64,000 nt of DNA from Thermodesulfovibrionales bacterium (GTDB taxonomy: Bacteria; Nitrospirota; Thermodesulfovibrionia; Thermodesulfovibrionales; CALJEL01), in assembly GCA_026417875.1 (NCBI GenBank), contig JAOACK010000005.1, positions 5,062 to 69,061 of the forward strand. The letters are read 5' to 3'. The notes beneath the pieces were generated by a model that worked only from the letters and a program-made list of their open reading frames with translations, was not told the DNA's origin and did no database searches. Below are positions 7,101 through 9,989 of the stretch, one piece after another. The translations under genes were made by a program, and so were the position numbers. Position 1 is the first letter of the stretch; every line of letters starts with the position of its first letter.

Positions 7101-7313
7101 CCGAAAATAATGACTGTCAGTGTAATACTTGCGGGTCTCATACCCATAATGTTCAGCCAGGGCACAGGCTCAGACGTAATGAAAAGGATCGCAGCACCAA
7201 TGATAGGCGGGGTAATAACATCAACAATCCTGGAGCTGATAATTTACCCTGTAATTTACATGCTCATAAAAAAGAGAGCTCTGAATAATTCTACCCCTTC
7301 AGCCTCTTTGTGA
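4119..7313 (+). CDS. cusA: CusA/CzcA-family heavy-metal efflux RND transporter
   Basis: 1064 aa with a 12-TM RND architecture and two large periplasmic loops. The N-terminus [21 protein letters not shown]...[22 protein letters not shown] is characteristic of the HME-RND family. Confidence 0.92.
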   Translation: [1064 protein letters not shown]

Positions 7314-7744
7314 GTATCTCAAGATCAAGTTCATCCTGTTTTCTCCCTGTAGCCCTTTTATTCTTTATAAGTTCATTAAGCCCTATAAAATATACCTCTG
7401 TATCTCCGTATCTACCTATAGCTCTGTTTTTTCCAGACCTCCTCAAATGTGCACCCATCAATAGATGTCACTATATCAATCCTCACAGGCTCATAACCAA
7501 GCTGAATAATTATTCCAGAGCTCATAAAATCCTTCTCGGTGAGGCCTGTGAAACCGAATTCTTTTATTGCCCTTACCAGTCTTAAAGCATTCTCTTCAGT
7601 TGGTTCTATTAATATATCCATATCCTTGGTATACCTGGCAATAGCATGATAAGCCACTGCATAAGCACCCACTATACAGTATCTGACATCATGTTTTTTT
7701 AACAATCTTAAAAACTCTTCGTAATCCTTCTCTACCCTTTCCAT
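7291..7744 (-). pseudogene. Minimal nucleotidyltransferase-fold protein (copy 2), frame broken at about 7411
   Basis: The 110-aa ORF 7412-7744 carries a G-x(n)-DxD Pol-beta-like motif (CIVGAYAVAYHAIARYTKDMDILIEP) and stops at TAG 7412-7414. One nt downstream, another frame continues: YGDTEVYFIGLNELIKNKRATGRKQDELDLEILTKRLKG* (7410-7291). This aligns in style with the C-terminus of the paralogue at 8244-8723 (IPSIDDLIKLKQLGELRPKDLEDIEYL). The tail overlaps the convergent cusA 3' end by 23 nt. Confidence 0.55.
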
Positions 7745-7889
7745 AACCCTTCAGCTTATAAAAGACCTCCCTGAGATACTCCATGGTCTCAAGTCTCTCC
7801 TCTGGAGTCATATTAAGATGATAATTTATGTCTGCCTCTGAAGCATCCTTAAAAGAATTGAATCTCTTTATCCAGATCTTTTCTCTCAT
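7689..7889 (-). CDS. Small hypothetical protein, upstream partner of nucleotidyltransferase copy 2
   Basis: 66 aa (MREKIWIKRFNSFKDASEADINYHLNMTPEERLETMEYL...). It starts 2 nt after the stop of the CMD gene and overlaps the NTase start. It occupies the same position as the 52-aa ORF at 8710-8868. Confidence 0.45.
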   Translation of the reverse strand: MREKIWIKRFNSFKDASEADINYHLNMTPEERLETMEYLREVFYKLKGYGKGREGLRRVFKIVKKT

Positions 7890-7891
7890 TT

Positions 7892-8206
7892 CTAAAGTAT
7901 ATCATCAACCCAGCTCAGGGCTGCAGATACATTTGGAAAACCAATTGTACTTATTAAAAGTAGAAGCGAATGCCTTATCTCCTCAGGTTTGGCACCTGCC
8001 TCAAGGGCCCTCCTTGTATGGCTGTGAACAGCGCCCTCAGACTTTATTGCAGCTGCAGCAGCAAGCTGAATAAGATGAGCTGTTTTCTCATCAACTGGAC
8101 CTGCATTCTTAATGCTCTTTGCAAGACTATCAAGACTCTCCATTACCTCAGGATATCTCTTTCTGAGTTTAAGATACTGTTTCGGGAGGGCTTTCTGCTT
8201 CTTCAT
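7892..8206 (-). CDS. Carboxymuconolactone decarboxylase (AhpD-like) family protein
   Basis: The core reads LDEKTAHLIQLAAAAAIKSEGAVHSHTRRALEAGAKPEEIRHSLLL, typical of the CMD/AhpD fold. I prefer the start MKKQKALP at 8206, preceded by AAGGGGG, over the track start at 8251. Confidence 0.7.
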   Translation of the reverse strand: MKKQKALPKQYLKLRKRYPEVMESLDSLAKSIKNAGPVDEKTAHLIQLAAAAAIKSEGAVHSHTRRALEAGAKPEEIRHSLLLLISTIGFPNVSAALSWVDDIL

Positions 8207-8243
8207 ATAAAACCCCCTTAATAAAGATAAGATACCAAAGGTA

Positions 8244-8723
8244 TCATACAATTTCCTTCAGTTTTTTAAGATACTCTATATCCTCAAGGTCTTTTGGTCT
8301 CAATTCACCAAGTTGTTTTAACTTTATCAAATCATCTATAGAAGGTATCCTTACATAAAAATCAGAATCAGGATCTTTTTTGACCACTGATCTTTCATAA
8401 ACTTTATCAAAATCTAAAGAGATTCCGATAGAAGGTTTATCAAAGGCCTTTACGAAGAATACATCTATTTTATTACCTTCATCGTCAGAAAAAGAATCCA
8501 CAGGTCTTTTATCTTCAGAAGAATATTTACCGCTCAGGCAAAGCCTTTCCAGTAACCTGTAAACAGAGAAACGGTCTTCAGGATCAATCCAGAAATCGTA
8601 ATCAAAAGAAAAAAGAGGCGCACCATACTGAACAACAGCCTGTCTTCCAATAAGAATGTATCTGATGCCCTCTCTGTTAAAGGCCTTAATAATCTCAAGG
8701 GGATCAAATTCAGGTCTTCTCAT
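8244..8723 (-). CDS. Minimal nucleotidyltransferase-fold protein (copy 1)
   Basis: 159 aa. IRYILIGRQAVVQYGAPLFSFDYDFWIDP matches the Gly ... DxD signature of Pol-beta-type NTases. It is a paralogue of the gene at 7291-7744. Confidence 0.6.
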   Translation of the reverse strand: MRRPEFDPLEIIKAFNREGIRYILIGRQAVVQYGAPLFSFDYDFWIDPEDRFSVYRLLERLCLSGKYSSEDKRPVDSFSDDEGNKIDVFFVKAFDKPSIGISLDFDKVYERSVVKKDPDSDFYVRIPSIDDLIKLKQLGELRPKDLEDIEYLKKLKEIV

Positions 8724-8868
8724 CCCTCTTTATTTCCTTAAGTTTTCTAAAATAGGATAATCTTTTTTTTGCCTTCTCCACGTATCTTATCTTCTCTGAA
8801 GGAGTAAGTTTACTGAAGACCCTTATGTTTTCGATTATCTCATCCTCTCTTTTAAGTTTTATCTCCAT
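8710..8868 (-). CDS. Small hypothetical protein (52 aa), upstream partner of nucleotidyltransferase copy 1
   Basis: My own translation: MEIKLKREDEIIENIRVFSKLTPSEKIRYVEKAKKRLSYFRKLKEIKRDEKT*. Its ATG (8868-8866) shares one nt with the TGA (8870-8868) of the eRF1-like gene. Its 3' end overlaps the NTase start by 14 nt. It falls below the ORF-track length cutoff. Confidence 0.4.
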   Translation of the reverse strand: MEIKLKREDEIIENIRVFSKLTPSEKIRYVEKAKKRLSYFRKLKEIKRDEKT

Positions 8869-9989
8869 CAATACCTCAGGAAAGCACCTATGGACCCGTA
8901 TTTTTTTAATTCCTCAGAGGGTTCTGAAAGAACCTCAACAAGACTTCCCTGTTCAATTGCCTTTTCTCCAGCAAGCCCTATGATATGCTCTATGAATTCT
9001 ATCCTTCCACTGCAATAGGGACATTTCTCTATCTTCTGGGCTGTGAGATATCCACAGCCAGTACAGTGATAACCACCATTTTCAAAATCCTTAGAAATTA
9101 TTAACTTCATCACCCTTTTATCCTGAATTGCCTTAAGGACATCATCAAGTCCAAGCACAGCAGGCCCACCTTTAAGGCTAACCTCTATCAGTTTTTTTAC
9201 ATCCTCTTCCTCCTTTTTTCTTTCAAACTCCTTTATAACAGGTTCAACTTTCCTTAATACCTCATCAGGTTTTGCAAACATTTCTATCCTGACAGTTCCT
9301 ATAACCTTATTTAAAAGCTCTTTTGGAAGTCTATCTTTAATCATGGATACAGCCTCGGGAGAGCCTCCGATAATCAGTCTTCCAATATATTCTCCGTTCA
9401 TGAAGGAAGCAAGTTTTTCAATTACCTCCTTAAGATGAATTCCTACATGGTAATCAATATGTCTCTCATAGTGATCCTGGGAGAGGGCAAACCAACCACC
9501 CTTTTTATGCTTACCTGGCACGCCCTCTGTGTGCACCTCTCCATACTCAACAATCTCTCCGAGATGGACAACAAATATTCTTGCTGATTCCTTATCCACA
9601 ATCAAGATACAGTACCGCTGGTAATTGTCAAGAAGGTCAATAAGTGGTTTTGTATAGGGAAATCTATCTATAATAAGCTCATTCTTAACAGGTACATTTA
9701 GATGATAAACCTTCCAGAATAAATCATCCTCACCAGCAAAAACCGCTAGACCCTTTTTAAAGAGACGTTTACTTGTGAGGACATAATTCTCTATTTTTGA
9801 CATTGAATCCTTAACTTTCCTGTAAATCTCCCTGTCAAGATTATCAGATGTATGTTTAATCATATTTTTAAAATGGACCATATAATCTCCGGCCTTATTG
9901 AAAAGAGGATCGACATTCAGATAAAGACTCACAAAATAACCCTTTCCATCAAGTTCTGCCATCTCTTTTAATTCTCTCCTGTCCAGCAT
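8868..9989 (-). CDS. Bacterial eRF1-like protein (baeRF1 / Vms1-Ankzf1-type peptidyl-tRNA hydrolase family) with a C-terminal zinc ribbon
   Basis: 373 aa. The central loop VPGKHKKGGWFALSQDHYERH resembles the aRF1/eRF1 KKHGRGGQSxxRFxR loop, but with GGW...SQ in place of GGQS. The three-domain length is right for the family. The C-terminal domain carries CTGCGY...CPYCSG (CxxC-x(n)-CxxC). A strong RBS (GGAGG) lies upstream. Confidence 0.65.
   Translation of the reverse strand: MLDRRELKEMAELDGKGYFVSLYLNVDPLFNKAGDYMVHFKNMIKHTSDNLDREIYRKVKDSMSKIENYVLTSKRLFKKGLAVFAGEDDLFWKVYHLNVPVKNELIIDRFPYTKPLIDLLDNYQRYCILIVDKESARIFVVHLGEIVEYGEVHTEGVPGKHKKGGWFALSQDHYERHIDYHVGIHLKEVIEKLASFMNGEYIGRLIIGGSPEAVSMIKDRLPKELLNKVIGTVRIEMFAKPDEVLRKVEPVIKEFERKKEEEDVKKLIEVSLKGGPAVLGLDDVLKAIQDKRVMKLIISKDFENGGYHCTGCGYLTAQKIEKCPYCSGRIEFIEHIIGLAGEKAIEQGSLVEVLSEPSEELKKYGSIGAFLRY

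Follow-up and report, generated by a model that had tools for sequence, protein, structure and literature searches.

Two described systems come closest to a six-gene unit that lies on the minus strand at 7291-9989 of a 64,000-nucleotide (nt) stretch of DNA from a Thermodesulfovibrionales bacterium (contig JAOACK010000005.1 of assembly GCA_026417875.1, positions 5,062 to 69,061; hereafter the window). The unit encodes an eRF1-like (baeRF1) protein, a CMD-family protein and two pairs of a small protein and a nucleotidyltransferase (NTase). Balon-type baeRF1 proteins are without GGQ and NIKS motifs, bind the ribosomal A site with EF-Tu and hibernate ribosomes, and their genes have stress-operon neighbours encoding Hsp20, DnaJ/K, OsmC, RaiA and EmrB (PMC10901736). 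The ribosomes bound by this type are 70S, both vacant and translating, and the proteins have an HP motif, a lasso loop and a beta-hairpin insertion. MenAT1 of M. tuberculosis (Rv0078B-Rv0078A) is a gene pair whose upstream gene encodes a helical antitoxin of 68 amino acids (aa) that has no DNA-binding domain, and whose downstream gene encodes a minimal NTase of ~190 aa; this NTase, MenT1, adds CMP to tRNA 3′ ends and has the conserved residues T39, D41, K137 and D152 (PMC10435456, PMC11375011).

Our preferred reading, to which we give a probability of roughly 70%, is that two NTase cassettes, hitchhiking and now decaying, have by chance come to lie with a Balon-family stress gene pair, which makes the locus a composite. 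The first-pass annotation of this DNA had instead joined the genes into one tRNA- or ribosome-directed conflict or rescue system, and had stated that nothing comparable was characterised, which overlooked Balon (PMC10901736) and MenAT1 (PMC10435456). The idea of a single system was contradicted by the missing conserved linkage at ~160 loci of the baeRF1 gene family and at 124 NTase loci, and by the state of the cassettes as decaying insertions. The gene layout was as described there: all six minus-strand open reading frames (ORFs), the TGA/ATG overlap, the 14-nt and 2-nt junctions and the frameshift were confirmed in 7291-9989. The features are as follows.

8868-9989, minus strand: baeRF1, 373 aa, heading the six-ORF unit.
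8710-8868, minus strand: small ORF B, 52 aa, ATG at 8868-8866; putative antitoxin-like partner of NTase C.
8244-8723, minus strand: NTase C, 159 aa, with a 14-nt overlap with small ORF B.
7892-8206, minus strand: CMD-family protein, 104 aa, ATG at 8206, after a 37-nt gap from NTase C that contains a hairpin.
7689-7889, minus strand: small ORF E, 66 aa, starting 2 nt past the CMD stop; putative antitoxin-like partner of NTase F.
7291-7744, minus strand: NTase F, in two pieces, frameshifted, with a 56-nt overlap with small ORF E.
8231-8245, minus strand: hairpin GATACCTTTGGTATC with a T-rich tail, directly behind the NTase C stop and overlapping it.
10150-10177, minus strand: candidate sigma-70-like promoter TTGACT-16-TATTAT, ~160 nt upstream of the baeRF1 start, from a consensus scan.

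We call small ORF B and NTase C cassette 1, and small ORF E and NTase F cassette 2. The junction of baeRF1 and small ORF B reads TGATG, the ATG of small ORF B sharing its A with the TGA of baeRF1 (8870-8868). Each of the six ORFs has homologues elsewhere and they are, therefore, real genes and not chance ORFs.

Linkage was examined in other genomes at about 160 loci of baeRF family 10, the family of the 373-aa protein: the 80 closest loci (42-84% identity) and 80 diverse loci of the GGWSQ loop type. The diverse set was built from an alignment of the GGWSQ subset (A5), since the broad family-10 alignment (A4) was too divergent to seed a search. At least 1 kb of downstream sequence was available for 66 and 73 loci in the two sets. 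From the side of the cassettes, 80 NTase C-type and 44 NTase F-type loci, 124 in total, were examined. Not one of the 80 closest baeRF1 loci had an intact pair of small ORF B and NTase C. Small ORF E was present at three of them (L001, L003 and L004) and an intact NTase F at one (L004). Across all 160 family-10 loci, hidden Markov models (HMMs) of the NTases detected only L004 and one weak archaeal match (4.5e-5), and the small-ORF HMMs detected nothing in the 80 diverse loci. Conversely, all of the 124 NTase loci were without baeRF1 and CMD genes. A search of viral contigs turned up no relative of either NTase, so there was no evidence of phage carriage. The cassettes are autonomous two-gene units, horizontally spread among unrelated flanks.

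The history of the locus was read from a DNA alignment of the baeRF1-CMD junction and from a comparison of cassette 2, between the window and its closest relatives L001-L004. In L004, baeRF1 and the CMD gene are ~15 nt apart with no cassette between them. L003 has, at this site, what heavy deletion has left of cassette 1: the start of small ORF B, now mutated, a fragment coding for YLLIGRQ, and a C-terminal PEDLEDIEYLEKLK with its stop. In L001 and L002, all that is left of cassette 1 is the hairpin TGATACCxTTGGTATC, which follows the NTase C stop. The remnants in L001-L003 imply that cassette 1 inserted in a common ancestor shared with the window genome and was then independently deleted in the three.

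Cassette 2 is intact in L004 and frameshifted in the window. L001 and L003 have lost NTase F, keeping its first 16-18 codons, which overlap an intact small ORF E. In L002 (2480-2950), NTase F is gone and a repeat-bearing insertion of ~470 nt splits small ORF E. Two copies of the direct repeat TTAACTGTAAATTGCCGATAGAAA within this insertion point to a miniature mobile element. In four loci elsewhere (L199, L201, L202 and L203), NTase F is internally deleted beside an intact small ORF. An inactivated NTase F beside an intact small ORF was thus seen in at least seven loci and the reverse in none; no intact NTase F was found without a small ORF. Loss of the NTase first, with the small ORF kept, is the pattern expected if the NTase is a toxin and the small protein its antitoxin, and argues against the reverse polarity.

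The break in the NTase F of the window separates ORF pieces at 7412-7744 and 7291-7461, both of which are matched by the HMM of the family (ntF). Compared with the intact L004 ortholog, there is one extra A in an A6 run at 7427-7432. L004 reads EEVWQNRVTGRYG at this place, while the window reads EEVWKKQSYR and a stop, followed in another frame by (N)RAIGRYG. NTase F is a pseudogene here unless the assembly is in error. A programmed frameshift was considered and judged less likely: it would require a +1 shift at the A6 run, and L004 reads through the matching site without frameshift. The likelier cause is a simple insertion of 1 nt or an error in the assembly.

For the DUF2204 family (PF09970; cut-off 20.3 bits), the L004 ortholog of NTase F scored 31.2 bits and the repaired NTase F of the window 20.3 bits, exactly at the threshold. 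PADLOC gave only insignificant AbiEii matches for NTase F (E 0.015-0.036) and no match for the other five of the six genes. Small ORF E has the motif FxSFxEAExxDxxYYxxMTPEERLExxQxLRE...RLRRVxKI. Pfam gave nothing significant for small ORFs B and E, including no HEPN domain, and the PDB searches gave nothing for the small ORF E family. An E-type small ORF lies upstream of the NTase and overlaps its start by ~50 nt in 44/44 NTase F-type loci. These loci (43-67% identity) span over 10 phyla and include an Altiarchaeales archaeon.

The overlap of small ORF E and NTase F (7689-7744 in the window; around position 2500 in L161-L204) is ~50-56 nt long and is read in different frames. Both frames are conserved at the protein level across many phyla (…RLRRVxKIxxQT with its stop in one, M…DYEEFLxLL… in the other), making this a stable dual-coding junction. 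In L163 (3094-3192), another fragment similar to small ORF E directly follows the NTase, a sign of local duplication or stacking.

NTase C of cassette 1 had 72 homologs in the protein database, a few of them pre-annotated as DUF6036 (PF19502). In an alignment of the family (A1), G34, D41, D43, D87, K136, K144, D145 and D148 are invariant and position 39 is a conserved S/T. When 24 members of the family were compared with Pfam, 14 matched PF19502 (E ≤ 0.1, best 9.9e-6) and others matched NTP_transf_5 or DUF2204; the NTase C of the window itself did not match PF19502 at E ≤ 1. NTase C is a minimal Pol-beta-fold nucleotidyltransferase, DUF6036-like. PDB sequence and profile searches gave no match for it. 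Its AlphaFold2 model had a mean confidence (pLDDT) of 93.6, and the best Foldseek match of the model was MenT1 in the MenAT1 complex (8an5_B, E 7.6e-7, TM 0.66), followed by LnuA (4fo1), TM1012 (2ewr) and ANT(2′′)-Ia. The residues S39-x-D41, K136 and D148 of NTase C resemble T39, D41, K137 and D152 of MenT1 in position and motif, as distinct from superposition. Of the NTase subfamilies named as candidates in the first-pass annotation (DUF6036, DUF2204, MNT or AbiEii), the family matches supported two, with a DUF6036-like NTase C and a DUF2204 NTase F, and the alignment supported the retention of the catalytic Asp residues.

Small ORF B has the motif ENI(R/K)WFSK(L/F)TxxEKIR and belongs to no Pfam, NCBIfam or PADLOC family. 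A B-type small ORF lies directly upstream of the NTase and overlaps its start in all 21 nearest NTase C-type loci (at or above ~41% identity). These loci come from Nitrospirota, Desulfobacterota, Elusimicrobiota, Margulisiibacteriota and Fischerbacteria, and their flanks share almost nothing. This recurrence of the NTase with an upstream ORF, together with MenT1 as the nearest structure of NTase C, supports the first-pass view of the small ORF and NTase pairs as self-contained two-gene modules of the toxin-antitoxin type. In one NTase C-type locus (L092, 2286-3516), two NTase C-type genes stand in tandem, a sign of local duplication or stacking of the cassette.

The two cassettes had also been taken for duplicates of one module with a pair of NTase paralogs. 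This was not the case: NTase C and NTase F are 22% identical (E 3e-7) and fall into separate families, NTase C being DUF6036-like and NTase F a DUF2204 protein. BLAST shows no similarity between small ORFs B and E. A weak profile-profile match (73% probability) links them, centred on (W/Y)(F/Y)-x-x-x-T-P-x-E-(K/R)-(I/L). We therefore rejected a recent duplication, given the 22% identity of the NTases and a link between the small ORFs at the profile level only. Judged by their sequences, the cassettes are ancient relatives within one superfamily, and they were probably acquired independently.

The host gene of the composite encodes the 373-aa protein. Its Pfam match to baeRF_family10 (PF18854) covers residues 111-250, with E 4.4e-32 and 111.8 bits against a cut-off of 27.1. 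Weaker overlapping Pfam matches were to other baeRF families, acVLRF1 and eRF1 domains 2 and 3; the acVLRF1 match (30.7 bits) lies beneath the far stronger family-10 match. The NCBI name of the protein is Vms1/ANKZF1. In NCBIfam it matched aRF1_eRF1 (TIGR03676) over its full length (7e-29), at 100.8 bits and thus below the cut-off of 234.7, and it was likewise below the cut-offs of the Balon-type models NF052288 (85.3 vs 480 bits), NF052287 (60 vs 330) and NF052289 (52.2 vs 320). Its best PDB sequence match was Balon MSMEG_1130 (Msmeg1130; 1e-7).

The AlphaFold2 model of the 373-aa protein had a pLDDT of 81, with low confidence in the loop at 158-169. Foldseek ranked Balon Msmeg1130 (8v9l_z, 4.5e-23) above aRF1 (4af1, 3.9e-20); further matches were ribosome-bound mammalian eRF1 (5lzu), P. 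urativorans Balon, Rv2629 and Pelota/Dom34. The model aligned with Balon, aRF1 and eRF1 over ~380-420 columns. A three-domain eRF1/aRF1/Balon fold is confirmed at the level of this predicted structure.

The best conserved stretch of the protein is the loop PGKHKKGGWF, which is invariant in 81/81 sequences (the 80 closest loci and the window; 42-100% identity). This loop aligns with GGQSALRF, and its GGW aligns with the GGQ of S. pombe eRF1. The family-10 consensus, from 150 representatives at 50% clustering, reads VPGKHKQGGWSQ-x-(F/Y)QRHH, with the loop type GGWSQ. The Thermodesulfovibrionales clade has a three-residue insert in the loop, GGW-FAL-SQ, and the window reads GGWFALSQ. The Gln position that follows the insert varies between Q, E and G in this clade; the window has Q. 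The loop Gln sits at least two residues from the GGQ position, which holds the invariant W. There is no NIKS string in the 373 aa. The residues C309, C312, C323 and C326 are invariant across the compared sequences, which confirms a zinc ribbon in the C-terminal (Pelota-like) domain. The eRF1 fold, GGW in place of GGQ, and the zinc ribbon had all been proposed from the sequence of the window, and all three hold in the Foldseek comparison, the 81-sequence alignment and the cysteines. For the loop that had been written as GGW...SQ, the GGW proved invariant and the SQ did not, with Q, E and G varying within the clade.

Hydrolase activity of the 373-aa protein is doubtful because the Gln of GGQ is replaced by Trp in every compared ortholog. 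The primary release factors in bacteria are RF1 and RF2, and the 373-aa protein is, therefore, not a primary release factor. It is a member of a described, biochemically uncharacterised branch of the Balon/baeRF1 radiation, and the family-10 baeRF1 proteins are the most aRF1-like relatives of Balon. By analogy with these relatives, the GGW-loop protein may be a stress or hibernation factor, or a rescue factor.

The neighbours of family-10 genes agree with a stress context. Hsp20 genes adjoin the family-10 gene in 12/80 diverse GGWSQ loci and DnaJ-like genes, assigned by sequence inspection and not by family search, in 11/80. These are Chloroflexota and other bacterial family-10 loci (L205-L238), in agreement with the stress-operon context of Balon (PMC10901736). 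In 63/80 closest loci, which are from Thermodesulfovibrionales, an AI-2E transporter gene lies directly upstream and overlaps the baeRF1 start. One metagenome-assembled genome (MAG), DeMMO4_11, has two family-10 genes (L021 and L032), one with a CMD gene downstream and the other with an AI-2E gene upstream. This suggests two paralogous lineages, although contamination of the MAG is conceivable. The loop pattern HK[QK]GGWS[QSA]A also retrieved archaeal eRF1-like proteins (L239-L284) from Thermoplasmata, Methanosarcinaceae and Halobacteriota MAGs; an example of the archaeal GGW loop is NKHKKGGWSQARFNR in L277. The family-10 loop type is therefore present in archaea as well, presumably alongside canonical aRF1.

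The CMD protein matched PF02627 with E 2.2e-16 and 60.1 bits against a cut-off of 23. Its 104-aa translation has zero cysteines. An AhpD-like peroxidase was rejected on this ground, since AhpD-type CxxC chemistry needs Cys; of the label CMD/AhpD-like in the first-pass annotation, the family was right and the AhpD type was not. The CMD gene is directly downstream of baeRF1 in 7/80 closest loci (L001-L004, L018, L021 and L053) and no other downstream neighbour of baeRF1 is conserved in the sub-clade. The baeRF1 protein and the Cys-free CMD protein are a conserved host unit in this clade.

A mechanism that fits the preferred reading can be outlined. By analogy with Balon and aRF1, we infer that the GGW-loop baeRF1 protein would dock in the ribosomal A site under stress, with GGW at the peptidyl-transferase centre. 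Small ORF B and NTase C were inserted between baeRF1 and the CMD gene, and small ORF E and NTase F after the CMD gene. The cassettes would be read from the host operon, coupled by overlapping start and stop codons, with cassette 2 presumably dead here. In each cassette, the small helical protein would bind and block its NTase in the manner of MenA1, perhaps inducing autophosphorylation of S39/T39. Release of the NTase would probably let it add nucleotides to an RNA 3′ end, such as that of a tRNA, and arrest translation.

We lean slightly toward reading the cassettes as toxin-antitoxin modules with the NTase as the toxin. NTases with a benign role in small-molecule or antibiotic modification, or in RNA repair or modification, for which the small protein would serve as a regulator, chaperone or specificity subunit, are a less probable explanation, and an unlikely one in our view. 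It would account for a fold similarity to LnuA, ANT(2′′)-Ia and TM1012 that equals that to MenT1, for weak matches to Aminoglyc_resit and Lnu(E) in Pfam and NCBIfam, for distant NTase C relatives without a small ORF, and for the lack of significant PADLOC matches and of relatives on viral contigs. It does not account for the asymmetric decay, in which NTase F is dead beside an intact small ORF in at least seven loci and the reverse is seen in none, and the bicistronic overlap conserved across phyla and the patchy, transfer-like spread through unrelated contexts are typical of addiction modules. The polarity might also be reversed. In HEPN-MNT modules, a minimal NTase acts as the antitoxin, by nucleotidylation in this model, and the NTases here are minimal as well (150-159 aa), so that the small protein would be the toxin. 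We consider this extremely improbable: the partners are 52-66 aa long, have no HEPN match and are encoded upstream, the usual position of an antitoxin, and the small ORF alone survives loss of the NTase in at least six loci, which would be lethal if it were a toxin.

The single system of the first-pass annotation would have the NTase modify tRNA ends while the eRF1-like protein, as a hydrolase, resolves or exploits the stalled ribosomes. The tight, co-directional packing of the six ORFs with overlapping or near-abutting codons is what such a system would show; both partners plausibly act on translation, as judged from the eRF1 fold and the MenT1-like fold; and the insertion of cassette 1 predates the split of the window genome from L001-L003. 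Against these points, ~160 family-10 loci yielded one intact NTase cassette and none of the 124 NTase loci a baeRF1 or CMD gene, the nearest relatives lose both cassettes while keeping baeRF1 and the CMD gene, the NTase F of the window is a pseudogene, and the replacement of the GGQ Gln by Trp in all compared orthologs makes a hydrolase doubtful. We give this explanation almost no weight. A broader possibility, also very improbable though a shade less so, would hold a lineage-specific functional link and, independent of it, a widespread and so far undescribed superfamily of NTase toxin-antitoxin modules and a distinct GGW(S)Q class of A-site factors. Cassette 1, coupled to a Balon-like gene, could then be a source of MenT1-like toxin made only upon induction of the factor; the toxin could disable tRNAs while the GGW factor fills the empty A sites, as a ‘stop and store’ switch; and the GGW(S)Q eRF1 homologs, which occur also in Thermoplasmata and other archaea, would form the distinct class of A-site factors.

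Several observations weigh against parts of the preferred reading, that is, a chance composite with toxin-bearing cassettes. For toxicity, even MenT1 has no toxic effect in E. coli (PMC10435456), and toxicity cannot be taken for granted. In structure, NTase C is equally near to LnuA, ANT(2′′)-Ia and TM1012 (TM 0.66-0.67). In Pfam, NTase C has no match to AbiEii/DUF1814 (PF08843), and NTase F is below the cut-off for the same family (E 0.02-0.04, 14-15 bits vs 22.5). Distant NTase C relatives (at or below 39% identity; Acidobacteriota and Myxococcota) are without the small ORF, and the NTase is, therefore, not obligatorily paired. For decay, the frameshift in NTase F may be an assembly error because all the data come from MAGs. 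For the host gene, family 10 has been singled out as the baeRF1 family that keeps a conserved Gln, possibly catalytic (Burroughs and Aravind 2019, PMC6514570), and a Balon-like, non-catalytic reading of the 373-aa protein is not secure for this reason. For chance, the tight start-stop overlap of small ORF B and baeRF1 could reflect co-option rather than accident.

The transcription signals were sparse. The site at 10150-10177 is the sole obvious candidate promoter for the six-ORF unit as judged by its match to the consensus, and the count of sigma-70-like sites in the region was not above the expectation from shuffling. The simple consensus scan gave no candidate promoter belonging to cassette 1 itself. 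One terminator-like site was found against 2.6 expected, so the hairpin at 8231-8245 is weak evidence for a terminator. It is kept in L001, L002 and L003, which have lost cassette 1, and is confined to this clade; a role as a general feature of the NTase C cassette was rejected on this basis. Rfam gave nothing at gathering thresholds anywhere in the window.

The unit is convergent with a CzcA-type efflux gene (4119-7313, plus strand). Upstream of baeRF1, ~620 nt (9990-10613) are AT-rich (~35% GC) and without convincing ORFs. Synteny with the closest relatives L001-L004 breaks near 10000, which makes baeRF1 the first gene of the unit. The upstream neighbours of baeRF1 differ from one close relative to another: type IV pilin-like genes in the window and L004, and a gene for a 710-aa protein in L001. 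Elsewhere in the window, at 47244-47657 on the minus strand, a 137-aa protein with an RF-1 (GGQ peptidyl-tRNA hydrolase) domain is encoded (PF00472, 2.9e-23). It is ArfB-like in size and layout, so the same contig also encodes a bacterial-type rescue hydrolase.

What is new here is modest. It comprises two families of toxin-antitoxin-like cassettes, uncharacterised and laid out like MenAT1, and a record of the GGW(S)Q loop in family 10. The locus is not to be treated as one tRNA or ribosome conflict system. Its value lies in its parts. The DUF6036/DUF2204 NTases are the large subunit of conserved mobile two-gene cassettes, in which the decay marks the NTase as the probable toxin, and the cassettes are candidates for extending the MenT-type tRNA-modifying toxins beyond DUF1814. 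The family-10 proteins could serve to find out if this branch acts in ribosome hibernation or rescue, or still hydrolyses peptidyl-tRNA.

Among known systems, aRF1/eRF1 has in common with the 373-aa protein a full-length similarity, the fold (4af1, 5lzu), a loop comparable to GGQSALRF and a C-terminal zinc-ribbon insert. The 373-aa protein differs in falling below the TIGR03676 cut-off, in an invariant Trp for the catalytic Gln and in having no NIKS. Compared with Balon (P. urativorans Balon, Msmeg1130 of M. smegmatis and Rv2629 of M. tuberculosis; PMC10901736), it has the same three-domain aeRF1 fold without GGQ and NIKS, and it has an N-terminal SLY(L/F)N(V/A)DP block in common with Msmeg1130. 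Further likenesses are the stress-gene neighbours and the two copies of the 373-aa family apparently present in one MAG (L021/L032). It is unlike Balon in belonging to another baeRF1 family, far under the three NCBIfam hibernation cut-offs; in its invariant GGW(S)Q-type loop, the counterpart of which in Balon is a divergent lasso loop; and in a C-terminal insert that is a four-Cys zinc ribbon, whereas that of Balon is a beta-hairpin.

The cassettes are like the HEPN-MNT and AbiEi-AbiEii (type IV/VII) systems in being two-gene modules with a Pol-beta-fold NTase and a patchy, mobile distribution. They are unlike them in a partner that is neither HEPN nor a COG5340/AbiEi winged-helix protein and in an NTase much smaller than AbiEii. 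The families without assigned function DUF6036 (PF19502) and DUF2204 (PF09970) are matched by 14/24 NTase C relatives and by the NTase F ortholog, respectively, with TM1012 (2ewr) as a solved structural neighbour; to these families the cassettes here add a conserved small upstream partner without a significant Pfam match. Searches of a literature collection on baeRF1, DUF6036 and DUF2204 found nothing relevant. MenAT1 has no detectable sequence homology to the cassettes: the PDB profile search was empty, and in sequence the small partners have no relationship to MenA1. In organisation, MenAT1 and the cassettes agree in having a small upstream partner and a minimal NTase, with S/T-x-D, a later Lys and an acidic residue at nearly equal positions, and the patchy distribution of MenT1, like that of the cassettes, suggests horizontal acquisition.

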